IMG/VR virus record: IMGVR_UViG_2737471863_000001
Origin: a virus
Lineage: Duplodnaviria; Heunggongvirae; Uroviricota; Caudoviricetes
DNA length: 33,695 nt
Reading direction: 5' to 3' (one strand)
Shown: in pieces, positions 9,967 through 28,525 of the stretch
Position numbering within the stretch: the stretch's first letter is position 1
Layout of the letters: every line of letters starts with the position of its first letter
The notes under the pieces: model-generated
Seen by the model: the letters and a program-made list of their open reading frames with translations, nothing else
What the model was told of the DNA's origin: nothing
Databases searched by the model: none
Translations under genes and position numbers: made by a program

Positions 9967-11240
9967 CAGTCGGTAATCTCCACAGGCTGCGTTGGCAGTA
10001 TGAATGACGGATGGCGCAGGCGGTTACGCTGCACGATTTCATCCCGTCGGCTGGTGTCACCATGTTCGCGCCATGCCAGCAATGCGGCAGATGTGGTTGT
10101 GGTCAGCATTACCTGTCGGGTTTCCGGCAGACGGGCGGCACGCTCGCGGGCATCCGTAATCACGGCCTGCCGTAAATCGCGCAGCGTTCGCCACAATGCC
10201 CGCTGGTTATTTTCCACCGCTGCCACCGCCTGCTCATGCAGTTCAGCTGCCAGCGTGTCACCGGCAGATAACGCCGCATCACTGGTATCGAACGTCATCG
10301 AGGCCACGGCATTTGCCTGTCCCAGCAGGGTTTCCAGCACAACCACCTGGCGGAAGTCGTCAATGTTCTTCTGCAGGCTGTCAGATACCGGCTGATAACC
10401 CGGTGACAGCCCGATAGCAAAGCCGGGTTTGCCGTCTGCCACGCTGCCGGGCTTCACGGTGATATCTTCCGGCAGTGCGCCGGTGGCAACCTGTCGGGCG
10501 CGTTCTCCGGCCCACTGATTGCGTAATGTCGTGTAAACCGCCAGTGCTTCGGGTGGTTCCGTCACCAGATCAACCACGCCGTCGATGAACGAGGACAACT
10601 CACTGACCAGACGTCCCGGCGTGGCAATAATGGTTCCGGCCATCTCCTTAAAATGGTTCAGCCTGTCCATCCACTGATTCAGTGCTGCCGGTAGCGTGGG
10701 CAGGTTAGCCACAAGGTTTTCCATATCAGCCAGAAAGCTGTCGGCCATCTCACCCAGCCCGTCAAGTGCGCCGAACCAGTCGCCATCGTCGATGGCAGCT
10801 TTTACCGCATCAATGCCCGTCAGCACTTCCTGCTGCGTGTTATCCGCCGCAGACGGGAACAGGCGCTCGCCTGCCTCAAACACTTCAAAGGTGACATACG
10901 CAATGCCGTCTTCCTCCGTGCTGAGGCGATGGGTGACCTTGCCAACCTGTACGGTCTGTATCCCGAACCACGGGTGGATAAGCTCGCCGGGGCCGGGAGT
11001 ATTAAGCGCGTCTAAAAGGGCGTTTAAATCATCCTGGAAGTTTTTACCTGGCAGCTTTGCGTTAATCTGCTGTTGCCCCGGAACAGCCCCGTTATCATCC
11101 GTCCAGGCGGTTTCGCGCCGGGGATACGCGCGGGGAATCGCTCTGCGGCCACCGGTGCCTTCTGTATCCACCAGAAAGAAGGGAACGCCGCGAAACGAGG
11201 CATCGCGCAGCCCGTCCCATTTGCCTTTGCTCGTTGTCAT
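9966..11240 (-). CDS. tail/DNA circularisation protein (Mu P/gp43-like)
   Basis: 424 aa, ATG 11240 overlapping the tape-measure stop (TAATG). Confidence 0.7.
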   Translation of the reverse strand: MTTSKGKWDGLRDASFRGVPFFLVDTEGTGGRRAIPRAYPRRETAWTDDNGAVPGQQQINAKLPGKNFQDDLNALLDALNTPGPGELIHPWFGIQTVQVGKVTHRLSTEEDGIAYVTFEVFEAGERLFPSAADNTQQEVLTGIDAVKAAIDDGDWFGALDGLGEMADSFLADMENLVANLPTLPAALNQWMDRLNHFKEMAGTIIATPGRLVSELSSFIDGVVDLVTEPPEALAVYTTLRNQWAGERARQVATGALPEDITVKPGSVADGKPGFAIGLSPGYQPVSDSLQKNIDDFRQVVVLETLLGQANAVASMTFDTSDAALSAGDTLAAELHEQAVAAVENNQRALWRTLRDLRQAVITDARERAARLPETRQVMLTTTTSAALLAWREHGDTSRRDEIVQRNRLRHPSFILPTQPVEITD

Positions 11241-23435: not shown

Positions 23436-24013
23436 GCGCTAATCCCCAGAATTTCACGTTTGATGGTGTCAGCCGCACCGCCTGACAGACCGCCCGTTCT
23501 GACCAGTTCTTCGGTTTTCTCTGCCATCTCCTGCGCAAACGCATCGCGGATCGCTTTCTCGCGTTTATGGCTGGTCATGGCTGCCGCTTCCAGACGCTGG
23601 GCAACCAGCGCCAGTTGCCCCAGCGCTTTCGGTGCAACTGGCTTGTCGTCTTCTGCCATCGACATGGACGTTTCAAAGGCCAGCGTTTTTACAAACTCCA
23701 TCAGCAGCTTGCCGACGTCAGACGTCGGTGCAGAACCCAGCTTTGCCGCCCAGACTTCGGCCATTTCGCGGGAGGCGCGGATTTTGGCCCCGACTTTTTC
23801 CATGCGGATGGCATAGCGGTTTAAGCCCGTCCGGCTTAACTGCATCTCTTCCGGCAGGTTATGTTCGTCAATCAGGGCGTTGATGGCTTCGCGGATTTCT
23901 TCCTGCGTGTGCCGCTTTTCCCGCAGCATCTGATGCAACTGCTCCCGGATGCTGTCCGGGAGTAAATCCACTTTGGAAAGACGGCCACGGGTGGGGCGTT
24001 GTTCATTTTCCAT
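23432..24013 (-). CDS. Mu gp27/D-like protein (putative terminase small subunit)
   Basis: Track ORF opens at GTG 24034; the first ATG at 24013 has a strong AGGAGG SD 7 nt upstream, giving 193 aa. Confidence 0.55.
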   Translation of the reverse strand: MENEQRPTRGRLSKVDLLPDSIREQLHQMLREKRHTQEEIREAINALIDEHNLPEEMQLSRTGLNRYAIRMEKVGAKIRASREMAEVWAAKLGSAPTSDVGKLLMEFVKTLAFETSMSMAEDDKPVAPKALGQLALVAQRLEAAAMTSHKREKAIRDAFAQEMAEKTEELVRTGGLSGGAADTIKREILGISA

Positions 24014-24150
24014 GTGTGCCCTCCTGTTGCTCACTACGCTGTAAACTTTCGTATGCAGATTTCAGTGCGCCGCTCTGGATTTCCCGCCATGTCAGGTTGT
24101 GCGCCAGACGGCGGAGTTCATCACGGGACGCTTTACTTATCGGATTCTTT

Positions 24151-24450
24151 TTACGGTTCACGACGGCCCCCGTCTTCAGTTCCCGGTGTTTTCAGACCGG
24201 CGTATATTTCTTCGCGAACGGAGCGGATATCCTTACCCAGCAGCTTCCACAGCCGCGCACATGCCGGTGATGAACGCAGGGCACGTTTCATGGGGGTATC
24301 CGGTGCATCCGGGTTCCAGGGCTTTCCGGTCTGTTGTTCGTATGCACAGGCAATGGCCTTTTGCTCAATATCTGCCAGCACAAGGCAGTACGCCAGCTGC
24401 CGCACGACGGCCCGTTCTCCGCGACTTAACGGCTTCAGTTTTCGGGCCAT
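24151..24450 (-). CDS. hypothetical protein (lysis-head junction)
   Basis: 99 aa, ATG 24450 with GAGGGA SD; no family recognised. Confidence 0.4.
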   Translation of the reverse strand: MARKLKPLSRGERAVVRQLAYCLVLADIEQKAIACAYEQQTGKPWNPDAPDTPMKRALRSSPACARLWKLLGKDIRSVREEIYAGLKTPGTEDGGRREP

Positions 24451-24452
24451 GC

Positions 24453-24746
24453 TCAGTCCCTCGCACGGGGTTTTTTAACGCCCGGAACGCTGGACTGGCC
24501 GTTTGCCACATCCTCGCCGCTGCCGGTGATTTCAGCCACGTAACAGCCGCCCACATCAGACAGACGAACCAGCCCCTGCTCGCGAAGCCATGCAAGCTGG
24601 GTGCGCACCACATCACGGGATACCTTATGACCGTAAGCCTGAAGGCAGGTCTGCAACACGGATTCATTCGCGCTGTCGCCACAGTCCAGCAGGGAACGCA
24701 GCAACACCAGACGACGGTCTTCAGTGAGGATCTCTTTCATCGCCAT
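24453..24746 (-). CDS. hypothetical protein, possible winged-helix fold
   Basis: 97 aa, ATG 24746 overlapping the upstream stop (TAATG). Confidence 0.4.
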   Translation of the reverse strand: MAMKEILTEDRRLVLLRSLLDCGDSANESVLQTCLQAYGHKVSRDVVRTQLAWLREQGLVRLSDVGGCYVAEITGSGEDVANGQSSVPGVKKPRARD

Positions 24747-25051
24747 TAATTTTTTTCCTTTAACTCGTTCTCTAATAACAAATCACTGATGCGGGATACC
24801 TGGCGGATGGATGGCCCCAGCTCTTTGATTTCTCCCCGCAGGTTGCTGATATCCAGTTGCAGACGGTGGAACTCATCACGATCAGGTAGCTGATGTACCT
24901 GGCTTTCCATCACCGACACGCGGGAACGCAACAAATCAAACTCTTCGCGTTTGACGTACGTCTTCGCCAGAATCAACTGAAGCAGGTTTATTGCTGTCAT
25001 TAACAGCGCCCACAGAATGGGCCAGTTGGCTCTAATCATTTCCCAGGACAC
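24746..25051 (-). CDS. membrane-anchored coiled-coil protein, lysis accessory (spanin/releasin-like)
   Basis: Hydrophobic N-terminus WPILWALLMTAINLLQLILA then a charged helical region; start GTG 25051 (AGGAGG SD) or ATG 25039 (ATGA coupling). Confidence 0.45.
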   Translation of the reverse strand: MSWEMIRANWPILWALLMTAINLLQLILAKTYVKREEFDLLRSRVSVMESQVHQLPDRDEFHRLQLDISNLRGEIKELGPSIRQVSRISDLLLENELKEKN

Positions 25052-25263
25052 GTCTTCCTCCTGCGTTCCCGCATCTGCTGACAGTCAATACAGGTCACCA
25101 CATCCGGCAGCGCCGCAAGGCGCTGTACCGGAATAACGTTCCCGCAGTCATTGCAGAAGCCCCGACTGTGGGGCGCTTCTTTTGTCCGTATCTGCCAGGC
25201 TTTAACGACGCTCTGACGCTCGTTCAGAACCACTTCACTGATGCGGTCGATTTCGTCGGTCAT
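25036..25263 (-). CDS. TraR/DksA-family C4 zinc-finger protein
   Basis: 75 aa, ATG 25263 (ATGA overlap); CNDCGNVIP...VTCIDCQQ spacing matches the TraR/DksA zinc finger. Confidence 0.6.
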   Translation of the reverse strand: MTDEIDRISEVVLNERQSVVKAWQIRTKEAPHSRGFCNDCGNVIPVQRLAALPDVVTCIDCQQMRERRRKTCPGK

Positions 25264-25868
25264 TTCGGCCCCGCAGATATTTTGTGACGGCTTGATTTGC
25301 TGTAACGGGCAAAGCCGTCAAGGGTTCGCACGCCGAGATAGCCCAGCGCAGGGGTAAGCAACATCAGCGTGATATCCCAGTCCGGTGATGGCATATGCAG
25401 CGTGATACCTCTGGCACCGGCAATGGCTCCGGCAATCTGGCCGCAGGAAAGCAACAGCACATAGGCAAGACTGCTGTAACAGGACAGGCGGGCCAGCAAC
25501 GGGCGCGTCTGGCGCACATAGCTGTCCGTGGCGTTGTCACCATTGCGGATGGTTTCCTGCTGTTCGTGGTGTGCGGCCTGCTGATCAGCCAGCACCAGCT
25601 TCTGCCGTTCCACCTCCAGTTGTTGCAACTGAATTTTCAGGGTTTCCAGCTGCATCAGTTGCTCCGGTGACAGCATCACCAGTTTTTGTTCCAGAATGCG
25701 TTGCTGTTCAGCCACCGGCAGGCTTTCCCGGACACTTTCCACCATACCGGCCACCGAGTCAGCGGCGGCAGATGTGCTGCCACCAAACCAGCGCCCGACG
25801 GAACGAATCAGCCCCGGCCCGGCTTTCAGCAGAACAGAGGCGATGCCTGAAAGGGTTAACGGATCCAT
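25260..25868 (-). CDS. membrane protein with central coiled-coil and C-terminal hydrophobic segments (holin/lysis candidate)
   Basis: 202 aa, ATG 25868 with AGGGGGA SD; Gln/Leu-rich helix, then hydrophobic LAYVLLLSCGQIAGAIAGA and ITLMLLTPALGYLGV. Confidence 0.4.
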   Translation of the reverse strand: MDPLTLSGIASVLLKAGPGLIRSVGRWFGGSTSAAADSVAGMVESVRESLPVAEQQRILEQKLVMLSPEQLMQLETLKIQLQQLEVERQKLVLADQQAAHHEQQETIRNGDNATDSYVRQTRPLLARLSCYSSLAYVLLLSCGQIAGAIAGARGITLHMPSPDWDITLMLLTPALGYLGVRTLDGFARYSKSSRHKISAGPK

Positions 25869-26266
25869 GAATCCCCCTTATGAAAACGGCGCTGATGTTT
25901 ATAAAGTGCCGCGCAAAAAATACCGCCCAGCCAGAACGCCAGCTGATAAGGCTCCTTCAGATAAAGAATGCCGAATGTCAGCATGAAAAAACCAACGGCC
26001 CAGACCACCCATGACCACACGACAATTCGAAGGGAAGCGGCCCGGAAACGCCTTTTGGGTTGCAGGCGATAAGGTACGTTGCCCAGCTGGAAACTGTGAA
26101 TCAGACAGAGTGTCGCGCCGTATGCCAGCACCATGACCGCAAACGCCCGCCATCCGGCAAAACAGCTCGCCAGAAAAAGGACTGCCGACAGCCCCAGAAA
26201 CGACCACTGGCACAACATAAAGCGGGAGCAAATAACGCGAACAAAAAGACTATTCATTCTGTGCAT
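25856..26266 (-). CDS. small membrane protein with about four predicted TM helices (holin candidate)
   Basis: Start taken at internal ATG 26266 (AAGGAAA SD), about 136 aa; the 5' part of the track ORF overlaps the preceding gene and lacks an SD. Confidence 0.4.
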   Translation of the reverse strand: MHRMNSLFVRVICSRFMLCQWSFLGLSAVLFLASCFAGWRAFAVMVLAYGATLCLIHSFQLGNVPYRLQPKRRFRAASLRIVVWSWVVWAVGFFMLTFGILYLKEPYQLAFWLGGIFCAALYKHQRRFHKGDSWIR

Positions 26267-26477
26267 TGAGTTTTTCCTTGTACTTCTGGCACTGCCAGAA
26301 AATGTCCCGTGTATCCACGGCGTTCCAGCCACGCATGTAGTAGCTGGCGTGTGTGCCGTCATGGCCGGTATAGTCCAGCGGTTTCGGGGGCGGACCTCCG
26401 GCCATGCGGTGCAGAACCTCCTGACGCAGGCGGTCACGCCGCCCGGCTTTCAGTGAGGCATCCCAGCCTTTGCCCAT
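26250..26477 (-). CDS. hypothetical 75-aa protein directly after the endolysin
   Basis: ATG 26477 two nt after the lys stop, with GGGGGTGA SD; soluble, no family recognised. Confidence 0.35.
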   Translation of the reverse strand: MGKGWDASLKAGRRDRLRQEVLHRMAGGPPPKPLDYTGHDGTHASYYMRGWNAVDTRDIFWQCQKYKEKLNAQNE

Positions 26478-26478
26478 A

Positions 26479-27075
26479 TCACCCCCGCGTGGCGGACATG
26501 ATGCCCAGAGGGGTATCGATGATTTCCAGACAGGCGTCGGTCAGCTTTTCCATGCGGTTAAACCAGCCGTTCAGGTATTTGCCCTGGGCGGGTTTTGATT
26601 TGATGATGTCGGCATAAAAGCGGGAGCGACGGACAATACAGCGGGCCAGCAGCCAGTCAGGGGTGGACTGGCTCACGGCCTTGCGGGTACGCGGCCCGAT
26701 GATGCCGTCAGCATCCACATCAGCGGCTTCCTGCAAAAGTTTGATAGCCTTTTTAACGCCATGCTGAACCGCCGCATCAAACACAAAAAGCGCCACGCCA
26801 TCAGGCCACTGGTCACATCCGGCAGGCAGCCAGTAATCACGCAGGTAAATCTGTGCGGCCTGTTCGCGGGTTAAATCTTTGATGCGGGTATCCGGTTTAC
26901 CGTCACCGTTGACATCGGTTTTGCCGTCAATCACACCGTCGCGGCGGTCAGAAATGCCGTATTTGGTTTCGCCGCCACGGTCAGTGGAGTCATTGACATA
27001 GACGCCTTCGATATCGGGACGCAGAATGAAATTCAGCGCATGCTCAAAGGCCGGGGAGAATTTTTGATTTTCCAT
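26479..27075 (-). CDS. endolysin: GH108-type lysozyme domain with C-terminal peptidoglycan-binding domain, no N-terminal SAR/TM segment
   Basis: 198 aa, ATG 27075; hallmark IEGVYVNDSTDRGGETKYGIS of the GH108 family; no hydrophobic N-terminus. Confidence 0.8.
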   Translation of the reverse strand: MENQKFSPAFEHALNFILRPDIEGVYVNDSTDRGGETKYGISDRRDGVIDGKTDVNGDGKPDTRIKDLTREQAAQIYLRDYWLPAGCDQWPDGVALFVFDAAVQHGVKKAIKLLQEAADVDADGIIGPRTRKAVSQSTPDWLLARCIVRRSRFYADIIKSKPAQGKYLNGWFNRMEKLTDACLEIIDTPLGIMSATRG

Positions 27076-27130
27076 AAAAACACCTGTGAAGCAGAGTTAA
27101 ACGTGGTCTGCTTCATGGTGCCGGAGGCAT

Positions 27131-27156
27131 AAAAAAAGCCGGATTTACCGGCTTCA
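27131..27156 (-). terminator. rho-independent terminator between the Mor/C gene and lys
   Basis: Same 26-nt element as 19411-19436; begins 5 nt after the Mor/C stop (27161). Confidence 0.55.
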
Positions 27157-27160
27157 TTGA

Positions 27161-27610
27161 TTAAGGGCGTCGTGGCGGACGACGAACGGGGTGAGGCAGG
27201 TTCGGGGAGGGGTAAAACAAATCCGGCTGGTATTTATTGCGCTCCAGACGTCGCATCCGTTTGATGGCCTTGTAGACGGTTTTATACGTCACTCCGTAAC
27301 GCTGAACCAGTTCAGGAATATTATGGCCGTTAAAATCACGCCAGATACGCATATCCCGGACAAGATTCTCCAGAATATTCCCCCTCGGAACATAAACCTG
27401 CATCCCGCCGATATGGCGACAAATCGCCACAACCAGCTCAAGGGAATGAGCAGGGTCTGCGCCAATCCGGGCCAGCTCTTTACGCAGCAGTGCGTTCAGT
27501 TCAGAAAGTAACGCCGGATAAGCGGTGTTTTCCTGGTAATCATGAAGATATTCCAGAACGCTGTCGTCCCGGAGGTCTTCGAATAAATCCTGCTCTTTCA
27601 TCTGTTTCAT
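27161..27610 (-). CDS. Mor/C-family transcription activator (cannot say whether Mor or C orthologue)
   Basis: 149 aa, ATG 27610 overlapping the gemA stop (ATGA); N-terminal acidic region and C-terminal HTH VYKAIKRMRRLE; sits between gemA and lys. Confidence 0.7.
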   Translation of the reverse strand: MKQMKEQDLFEDLRDDSVLEYLHDYQENTAYPALLSELNALLRKELARIGADPAHSLELVVAICRHIGGMQVYVPRGNILENLVRDMRIWRDFNGHNIPELVQRYGVTYKTVYKAIKRMRRLERNKYQPDLFYPSPNLPHPVRRPPRRP

Positions 27611-28158
27611 ACAGCAATTCTCCCGCTGTTTCGTGCGCGGGCATACGCACTGGTCAGTGCATCATAGCCGCGCAGTTCCCGCCCGGATGGGCTTACAGGT
27701 AAAGGCACACCATGTCGGGCAAAGGCTTCACGGATGCAGCGCATGTGCCACTGTTTGAGCGTTTCGAGCACAACCTGCAACGATTCCCCGTGACACCATG
27801 CCAGCGTGGAAACACCCTGACCGCCATTACGTCTGGCCGTCAGGCGTTCAACGTATTTGTCCAGCGCGGCGTCGCTGATATCGGATACGAAACCATCAAG
27901 AAACATCTGCTGCCAGATTTTATAAATCTTCTCGCGCGGTGTGACATGCCCCTTAAAGCGACGGCGGGGATGTTTATTCTGCTTTTTAAAACCGCGCTCT
28001 TTCATGGCATCGAGCACTTGTTCCAGTTGTGCAACGGACAGCTCGCGGCAACTGGTTTTGCCCGTGCACTGCACCAGAAAGGCGCGGTAAGTGTCATCGT
28101 CGAGGTGCAACTCCCGGCGGGCAACATGAATTAATTTAATCAGGGATGTGCGACTCAT
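27607..28158 (-). CDS. gemA: GemA-like protein (Mu gp16 family)
   Basis: Start taken at ATG 28158 (AAGGAGA SD), 183 aa; N-terminus MSRTSLIKLIHVARRELHLDDDTYRAF is characteristic of the gp16/GemA family. Confidence 0.6.
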   Translation of the reverse strand: MSRTSLIKLIHVARRELHLDDDTYRAFLVQCTGKTSCRELSVAQLEQVLDAMKERGFKKQNKHPRRRFKGHVTPREKIYKIWQQMFLDGFVSDISDAALDKYVERLTARRNGGQGVSTLAWCHGESLQVVLETLKQWHMRCIREAFARHGVPLPVSPSGRELRGYDALTSAYARARNSGRIAV

Positions 28159-28525
28159 TTTGCCCCATCTCCTTAATGCAGTGTTTTTCGACCCATGCCA
28201 CACGAGCAGAATTCAGGTGGCATCTGTCATGCAGGCATTCATCATGGTAGTGCACGTTATCTACATTAAATGGCAGGGATTCATCCAGCCCACTCGCGAC
28301 AAAATCCGCATGTAATTGTTCTAGCGCAGCCTCGCTGTCTGCTCCGATTGATTCAAAATAGTCATAAACATTGGCGCATAATCCGACTCCCCGAATAAAC
28401 CCTTCCCCTTCCGTTTCTTGCGCTCCGTTTTTTAACCACTGGTTATAGGCGACATAAAAATCATAAAGATGTTTTCTGGTGCTGGCGGATGCGGATTTAA
28501 TTTCATTTTTCTCTGCGTTATTCAT
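28136..28525 (-). CDS. hypothetical early-region protein
   Basis: 129 aa, ATG 28525; acidic, Cys/His-containing C-terminus; no family recognised. Confidence 0.4.
   Translation of the reverse strand: MNNAEKNEIKSASASTRKHLYDFYVAYNQWLKNGAQETEGEGFIRGVGLCANVYDYFESIGADSEAALEQLHADFVASGLDESLPFNVDNVHYHDECLHDRCHLNSARVAWVEKHCIKEMGQNESHIPD

Follow-up and report, generated by a model that had tools for sequence, protein, structure and literature searches.

Soluble GH108 endolysin, PF11351-type holin candidate and DUF2730 protein in the lysis cassette of a Mu-like Escherichia coli prophage

The 33,695-nucleotide (nt) viral stretch (hereafter, the window; IMG/VR record IMGVR_UViG_2737471863_000001) belongs to a Mu-like (transposable) prophage of Escherichia coli. 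Its lysis cassette encodes a GH108 endolysin of the soluble kind, a candidate holin of the PF11351 type and a DUF2730 protein. The six genes from endolysin to DUF2730 exactly frame positions 24746-27075, and their open reading frames (ORFs) lie where an earlier note on this DNA had placed them, all on the minus strand. We consider canonical, holin-dependent release of a cytoplasmic muramidase to be the probable mode of lysis, with the cassette acting as a holin-endolysin operon of the type formed by the endolysin and holin of the Rhodobacter capsulatus gene transfer agent (RcGTA). The cassette is an E. coli-hosted addition to known Mu-like cassettes that hold a soluble GH108 enzyme, a PF11351-type holin candidate and DUF2730. 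Its genes, with product lengths in amino acids (aa) and transmembrane (TM) segments, are as follows.

27075..26479, minus strand: GH108 endolysin with a PG_binding_3 domain, 198 aa
26477..26250, minus strand: gp18-like soluble protein, 75 aa
26266..25856, minus strand: four-TM protein at the position of Mu gp19, 136 aa (start as chosen in relatives by the Prokaryotic Genome Annotation Pipeline, PGAP)
25868..25260, minus strand: helical protein with two C-terminal TM segments, PF11351-like, 202 aa
25263..25036, minus strand: TraR/DksA zinc-finger protein, 75 aa
25051..24746, minus strand: DUF2730 protein with an N-terminal TM segment and a coiled coil, 101 aa

The soluble endolysin and the holin candidate

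The endolysin matched two Pfam families, PF05838 Glyco_hydro_108 (E=1.2e-23; 83.9 bits, cutoff 21.2 bits) and PF09374 PG_binding_3 (E=1.7e-17; 63.8 bits, cutoff 24.6 bits), in agreement with the GH108 enzyme and peptidoglycan-binding domain described earlier. Matches were also found to the PHROGs endolysin family phrog_315 (E=8e-55) and, below the family cutoff, to the NCBIfam family 'holin-associated N-acetylmuramidase' (E=5.8e-21). The catalytic motif is IEGVYVNDSTDRGGETKYGI. When aligned with NMB1012, a soluble crystallised GH108 protein (PDB 2IKB; E=2.9e-19), IEGVYVND corresponds to HEGGYANH, which places the catalytic Glu at E23, with V instead of G at the third position of E-G-G-Y. Residue 10 of the endolysin falls on residue 5 of 2IKB, showing that the N-terminus belongs to the catalytic domain and leaves no room for a signal anchor.

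Signal-anchor-release (SAR) endolysins carry a weakly hydrophobic, uncharged, Gly/Ala-rich N-terminal TM domain of about 15-20 residues. No such hydrophobic segment was found at the N-terminus of the endolysin: the maximum 19-residue Kyte-Doolittle mean is 0.48, and the first 23 residues, MENQKFSPAFEHALNFILRPDIE, include seven charged or His residues (E2, K5, E11, H12, R19, D21, E23). Judged by its sequence, the protein is a soluble GH108 N-acetylmuramidase, not a SAR endolysin, and the earlier contrast with the SAR endolysin gp22 of Mu stands. GH108 enzymes can be SAR endolysins, for example gp61 of phage N4 (bioRxiv 10.1101/2025.11.12.688109). The ratio of nonsynonymous to synonymous substitution rates (dN/dS), calculated here and below with E. 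coli and Klebsiella relatives, is 0.12-0.16 for the lysin gene. Compared to 2IKB and to the Vibrio orthologue, the lysin has a 12-residue insert, DGKTDVNGDGKPD (window 26890-26928; residues ~50-62), which resembles a DxDxDG calcium-binding loop and is kept in the Klebsiella phage Kp4866-3.

The best holin candidate of the cassette is the 202-aa protein, which matched PF11351 (GTA_holin_3TM) at E=7e-4. An exhaustive phmmer search with this protein yielded 134 representatives, 97 of which were aligned over their full length (alignment A1). PF11351 was matched by 43 of these 97 homologues (E<=0.01; best E=1.7e-9), and no other family recurred. The AlphaFold2 (AF2) model built from the same alignment (predicted local distance difference test, pLDDT, 91.7) had as its top BFVD match A0A6J5PC24, 'Holin of 3TMs, for gene-transfer release' (E=8.7e-8, probability 1.00, 195 aligned columns). 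In Pseudoalteromonas phage HS6, the slot of the 202-aa protein is occupied by a bona fide PF11351 protein that is annotated 'holin' (E=5.3e-11, 43.5 bits).

Gene order gives the same indication. Homologues of the 202-aa protein lie directly downstream of endolysins of four domain types in unrelated phages: GH108 (Mu-like phages and Vibrio phage LP.1), M15 LD-endopeptidase (Janthinobacterium phage Donnerlittchen), Amidase_2 (Vibrio phage 431E45.1), and DUF5675 (Vibrio phage Martha). The membrane proteins beside the soluble GH108 lysin in the Vibrio and Shewanella Mu-like cassettes are limited to the 202-like and DUF2730 proteins. Based on the homologue scan, the structure match to the predicted model and synteny, the 202-aa protein is placed as a divergent member of PF11351. 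The earlier note had left both holin and spanin unassigned; a candidate can thus be named for the first of these roles, and the second stays without one (see below).

The protein consists of a Gly/Ala-rich N-terminal helix, long helices, a TM hairpin (~126-152 and 164-183) and a basic C-terminal tail. Following the positive-inside rule, its predicted topology is a cytoplasmic N-terminal helical region of ~125 residues, the hairpin, and a cytoplasmic tail. Compared to the three-TM family, there are two clear hydrophobic segments, both C-terminal; residues 3-21 reach a 19-residue Kyte-Doolittle mean of just 1.33 and contain K15. Two characterised proteins are relevant here. The RcGTA holin rcc00556, a PF11351 protein, is required for RcGTA release (PMC5026251). 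TeaA of phage ICP1, which was assigned to PF11351 by its authors via remote homology, causes the proton motive force to collapse and is triggered by dinitrophenol (DNP; PMC7182436). Like rcc00555 (endolysin) and rcc00556, the window proteins pair a GH108/PG_binding_3-type muramidase with a PF11351-type membrane protein, and the 202-aa protein is built like TeaA, in which an N-terminal helix bearing an FGG motif is followed by a helical region, then by two TM segments, and finally by a basic tail. In contrast to these likenesses, sequence kinship with RcGTA and ICP1 is remote, with the window proteins below family cutoffs; RcGTA has no DUF2730, gp18-like or TraR partners, and TeaA is paired with the antiholin ArrA.

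Several observations weigh against a holin assignment. The PF11351 score of the 202-aa protein (20.5 bits) is under the Pfam gathering cutoff (24.8 bits), and the 'TM' segments of several homologues contain acidic residues and fall below a hydropathy threshold. PF11351 was undetected in ICP1 TeaA by a local Pfam scan, and a profile comparison of the 202-aa family with TeaA was weak, at only 70% probability over 50 N-terminal columns. In Donnerlittchen (L007, positions 2208-3462), a non-Mu siphophage, a LydA-type class III holin and the M15 endopeptidase are followed by a protein of the 202-aa family; given this coexistence, members of the PF11351-like family are not necessarily the only or the main holin. 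The evidence is also computational throughout, and holin activity, expression and promoter use are predictions. The PF11351-like protein of Donnerlittchen sits at the usual spanin position, and no spanin is annotated nearby.

DUF2730, the four-TM protein and the spanin question

The 101-aa protein matched PF10805 (DUF2730) over profile positions 1-102 of 102 (E=1.1e-30, 106.2 bits) and has an N-terminal TM segment (~9-29) followed by a cytoplasmic coiled coil. It shows 28% identity to Mu gp25 in direct pairwise BLASTP (E=3e-11) and 39% to the DUF2730 protein of Vibrio phage 1.028.O (E=1e-23), and on this sequence evidence it belongs to the gp25 releasin family. In Mu, gp25 releases the SAR endolysin gp22, and SAR domains are present in just two out of nine families of endolysins that are paired with DUF2730 (Chamblee et al. 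2022; PMC9239132). Because the cognate endolysin has no SAR domain, the DUF2730 protein of the window cannot act as a SAR releasin.

Chamblee et al. (2022; PMC9239132) did not settle whether lysis requires those DUF2730 proteins that accompany non-SAR endolysins, and speculated that transposable phages may do without holins. In Table S1 of that study, endolysins with PF05838 and PF09374 beside DUF2730 are given for nine Mu-like myophages of Vibrio. The pairing of a soluble GH108 enzyme with DUF2730 in Mu-like phages is therefore already published, contrary to the earlier implication of an unusual or undescribed arrangement. A tentative possibility is that DUF2730 contributes to the membrane step more generally (e.g., as holin partner or antiholin) and is not a releasin for SAR enzymes only; it would then act beside a PF11351 holin and an endolysin that is soluble, in a spanin-free system where the outer membrane would be breached by an unrecognised factor, possibly the gp18-like or four-TM protein, or by none.

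An unlikely reading assigns the holin role to the 136-aa protein, either alone or in a co-holin/antiholin pair with the 202-aa protein, which would then be only a regulator. The 136-aa protein (phrog_12596) has four hydrophobic segments, and it is small and polytopic, with its gene no more than two genes away from the endolysin in their shared operon; this gene overlaps its neighbours by 13-17 nt, suggesting translational coupling. It agrees with Mu gp19 (120 aa, four TM) in position, size and topology, but the sequence match is weak and confined to a 17-residue motif (pairwise E=0.04), and tblastn with gp19 found no hit in the window. Samanta et al., as cited in PMC9239132, once proposed Mu gp19/gp20 as a holin/antiholin pair; both proteins were however reported to lack holin properties and to be dispensable (PMC9239132). 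Nor is the gene a constant companion of the lysin: the soluble GH108 enzyme is present in all the marine cassettes compared, whereas the four-TM gene is absent from those of Vibrio and Shewanella and its slot in Pseudoalteromonas HS6 holds an unrelated soluble 93-aa ORF. The family is also tiny and weakly constrained, with only 13 detectable homologues, of which those with a named source come from E. coli; the Klebsiella counterpart is 32% identical, and the dN/dS of 0.41-0.57 is the highest in the operon. We regard this inner-membrane protein as accessory, and as a minor candidate for holin or antiholin.

It is more doubtful still that DUF2730 itself permeabilises the membrane for a soluble endolysin, the releasin family then being a general endolysin-export device and not SAR-specific. 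Some features fit such a role. In each of 34 Mu-like phages surveyed, DUF2730 is encoded no more than five genes downstream of the endolysin, irrespective of the type of the latter (PMC9239132), and here its gene, the fifth downstream of the lysin, is strongly conserved (dN/dS 0.05-0.20). Formation of a hydrophilic channel is also among the published models of gp25 (PMC9239132). However, Mu gp25 has no holin properties and alone causes no holin-like lethality (PMC9239132), and the protein of the window has one TM domain and is encoded in the same operon as a family-level holin candidate.

The earlier note's description of the downstream products as functionally unassigned was wrong for the DUF2730, PF11351-like and gp18-like proteins, and its list of these genes was correct as far as it went and left out the TraR/DksA gene at 25263..25036. 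The first 75-aa protein is, by sequence, a homologue of Mu gp18 (E18; 68% identity, E=6e-31), and its homologues carry a precomputed PF26867 assignment. The AF2 model (pLDDT 85) has three helices and found no PDB fold match below E=1 in Foldseek. A gp18-like homologue directly follows the GH108 lysin in Shewanella and Pseudoalteromonas Mu-like phages; in Vibrio, the likeness of the 87-aa protein in this slot is limited to an MG(K/R)xW N-terminal motif, seen by eye. The second 75-aa protein matched PF01258 (E=7.5e-11; 42.3 bits, cutoff 24.9 bits) and TIGR02419 (60.4 bits, cutoff 59.7 bits) and has a C4 zinc-finger motif (CNDC...CIDC). It keeps the same position in Vibrio, Shewanella, Pseudoalteromonas and Klebsiella Mu-like cassettes, and Mu gp24 at this position also has CxxC...CxxC. 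It is probably an RNA-polymerase-binding modulator and not a lysis protein.

One PHROGs profile, phrog_2121 (284 positions), matched both the gp18-like and the 202-aa protein. This raised the question of a fusion or functional link between the two; the 134 representatives and 18 gp18 homologues included no such fusion, and the overlap is treated as a clustering artefact. A single database protein, P0282 (176 aa), apparently fuses a gp18-like domain (PF26867) to the four-TM protein, and the two corresponding genes overlap by 17 nt in the window; P0282 may result from a frameshift artefact or, if the fusion is real, point to the two proteins being functionally linked.

The spanin role cannot be assigned. 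Strict and relaxed scans of all six frames recovered no credible lipobox ORF in the cassette or in the whole 33.7-kb window, with hits only in known genes or in antisense frames. Moreover, Mu gp23 had no tblastn match in the window, no spanin or lipoprotein is annotated in the complete prophage of E. coli PSS-15 (see below), and the annotated proteins of the Vibrio and Shewanella cassettes contain no lipobox. From the first three of these results, we conclude that a canonical o-spanin or u-spanin is absent. Two apparent lipoboxes were rejected: LASC at Cys35 of the four-TM protein, which is followed by three TM segments and is unconserved in Kp4866-3 and Mu gp19, and 'LLSC' read from an internal GTG start of the 202-aa gene, which is non-canonical and lies inside the first C-terminal TM segment. 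A literature search on spanins in Mu-like phages returned nothing beyond Chamblee et al.

Operon, promoter-like element and prophage

The cassette is embedded in a region (23.4-28.2 kb) where every gene lies on the minus strand, with these neighbours and intervening elements.

28203..27607, minus strand: GemA/gp16-like protein, 198 aa
27610..27161, minus strand: Mor-family activator, 149 aa
27160..27076: intergenic region between mor and the endolysin gene, 86 nt
27114..27158, minus strand: hairpin/dyad AGCCGGTAAATCCGGCTT followed by T7 and then a conserved stretch, between mor and the endolysin gene
24746..24453, minus strand: gp26-like protein, 97 aa
24034..23432, minus strand: gp27 (small terminase), 200 aa

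Adjacent cassette genes abut or overlap by 1-17 nt with no gaps, from which we conclude that the six genes form one operon. The lysin, gp18-like, 202-aa and DUF2730 genes have dN/dS values of 0.05-0.20 (0.11-0.20 for the 202-aa gene), followed by the TraR gene (0.38) and the fast-evolving four-TM gene. This purifying selection supports the view that the cassette ORFs are real genes.

The prophage is Mu-like, with GemA, Mor, transposase and portal as hallmarks. Using tblastn of Mu proteins against the window, we found identities of 82% (GemA), 63% (Mor), 68% (gp18), 61% (gp26) and 47% (gp27), and no hit for gp19, gp20, lys (gp22), gp23, gp24 or gp25. The comparison with the Mu lysis genes that had been proposed earlier thus returned no gp22 or gp23 homologue in the window. 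Mu C matched only the single mor-like gene (32%). These results identify the segment from mor to gp26 as a mosaic replacement of the 18-19-20-C-lys-23/23.1-24-25 region of Mu. Like Mu, the window has GemA, Mor, gp26 and gp27 flanks, a gp18 homologue, a Pm-type dyad after mor, and DUF2730 preceded by a small zinc-ribbon protein. Unlike Mu, which encodes the SAR endolysin gp22, the spanins gp23/gp23.1 and the releasin gp25, and is reported to be holin-less (PMC9239132), the window lacks a SAR lysozyme, a gp23/23.1 spanin, gp20 and the C activator, and has instead a soluble GH108 muramidase and a PF11351-type holin candidate.

The dyad AGCCGGTAAATCCGGCTT is almost identical to one in the Mu mor-gp18 intergenic region, which contains Pm; the Mor-binding site of this promoter is a dyad at -51..-36 (PMC4287176, PMC4390567). 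A terminator-like hit was obtained at 27155-27135. Based on the sequence, the element is probably a Mor-dependent, Pm-like promoter that overlaps a terminator-like hairpin. In Klebsiella phage Kp4866-3 and E. coli TD225, where ORFs were inserted after mor, the dyad has kept its place immediately upstream of the lysin, and an exact second copy is present at 19433-19416, upstream of protease gene I. With a single Mor/C-family gene in the window, we infer that its product probably activates the lysis operon directly. The lone gene also suggests that the Mor-then-C cascade of Mu is replaced by two tiers under one activator.

The dyad is part of a ~45-nt element, CA(A/G)TGAAGCCGGTAAATCCGGCTTTTTTT(A/C)TGCCT..., which occurs twice on the minus strand, at 27158-27114 (endolysin) and 19438-19394 (Mu-I-like protease gene, at the position of Mu P_I); a third, degenerate copy (three mismatches) is found at 10420-10437. 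Between mor and the promoter-like hairpin, E. coli TD225-C4 has an extra gene for a 159-aa signal-peptide protein (L002, 4276-4755) and Kp4866-3 one for a 110-aa multi-TM protein (L005, 1378-1710); these two extra genes look like moron-type insertions. A signal-peptide protein of 150 aa is encoded at this place after mor in the Vibrio and Shewanella phages. Downstream of the cassette, on the minus strand, a 52-aa ORF (24003-24161) adjoins a 99-aa ORF (24151-24450) and is a truncated paralogue of the N-terminal part of the latter; both match phrog_8988. The 93-aa protein between the gp18-like gene and the holin of Pseudoalteromonas phage HS6 resembles these ORFs, as judged by eye only.

Of 5426 complete E. 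coli genomes, 49 contain a match to the region, in most cases with 90-99% identity at the DNA level. The closest prophage copy, in E. coli PSS-15 (NZ_AP027709.1, 496146-530468), is a near-complete element of ~34 kb that extends from the repressor to com/mom and appears complete. It splits aaeB (FUSC family efflux protein), both halves of which flank the prophage and are annotated as pseudogene fragments; this is a typical Mu-type transpositional insertion. That the cassette is a dead remnant of a cryptic prophage, or that its GH108 protein is non-lytic (e.g., TtsA-like local murein remodelling), is very improbable: even though solved GH108/PG_binding_3 structures include 'secretion activator' proteins and a megablast comparison of the region with the phage collection gave no DNA-level match to any isolated phage record (relatives came from protein searches only), each of the six ORFs is intact, with purifying selection evident among E. 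coli and Klebsiella relatives, the PSS-15 prophage is near-complete, the related Klebsiella phage record Kp4866-3 has the same cassette, and the cassette lies between mor and the terminase genes, as in Mu.

Related cassettes and the proposed route to lysis

The gene order of the window is shared with Vibrio phages (e.g., 1.028.O._10N.286.45.B6, MG592412), Shewanella MuM16-2 and Pseudoalteromonas HS6. The common marine order is Mor, GH108+PG_binding_3 lysin, gp18-like, PF11351-type, TraR zinc finger, DUF2730, gp26 and gp27; in HS6, the cassette runs GH108 lysin, gp18-like, small ORF, PF11351 protein, TraR and DUF2730. Identities between the window and the Vibrio phage are 42% (lysin), 39% (DUF2730) and ~39% (202-aa protein), and the Vibrio phage with 42% lysin identity is one of the nine in the published Table S1. 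Unlike the marine cassettes, that of the window resides in E. coli, has the extra four-TM gene between the gp18-like gene and the holin candidate, carries the 12-residue lysin insert, and shows no signal-peptide ORF between mor and lysin.

Holin-dependent release of the cytoplasmic muramidase, our preferred reading, would proceed as follows. The single Mor/C-family activator would turn on the Pm-like promoter directly upstream of the endolysin. The GH108 muramidase, because it has no export signal, would fold and build up in the cytoplasm, and the 202-aa protein would accumulate in the inner membrane via its C-terminal TM hairpin. At a set time, the latter would permeabilise the membrane and allow the muramidase to reach the murein, as its family membership, synteny and the holins rcc00556 and TeaA suggest. 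More speculatively, DUF2730 would have been retained from a Mu-type cassette, and its most likely task would be to tune the membrane step by affecting when or how efficiently the holin acts. The gp18-like and four-TM proteins would be counterparts of the products of Mu genes 18 and 19, from the middle operon, and probably lie outside the core lysis machinery, and the TraR-like protein would act as a transcription modulator. With no canonical spanin, rupture of the outer membrane would be spanin-independent or caused by an unrecognised component.

Apart from the questions that concern DUF2730, the holin and the spanin, this is an ordinary phage lysis operon whose annotation can be improved by homology alone. 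It shows that one Mu-like lineage in E. coli carries a family-level holin candidate beside DUF2730 and a soluble endolysin, and so bears on the question, left by Chamblee et al. (2022), of the role of DUF2730 beside a non-SAR endolysin. Because the host is E. coli, Mu-type pBAD and lysogen assays are directly applicable to DUF2730, to the PF11351-type protein, and to spanin-free lysis.

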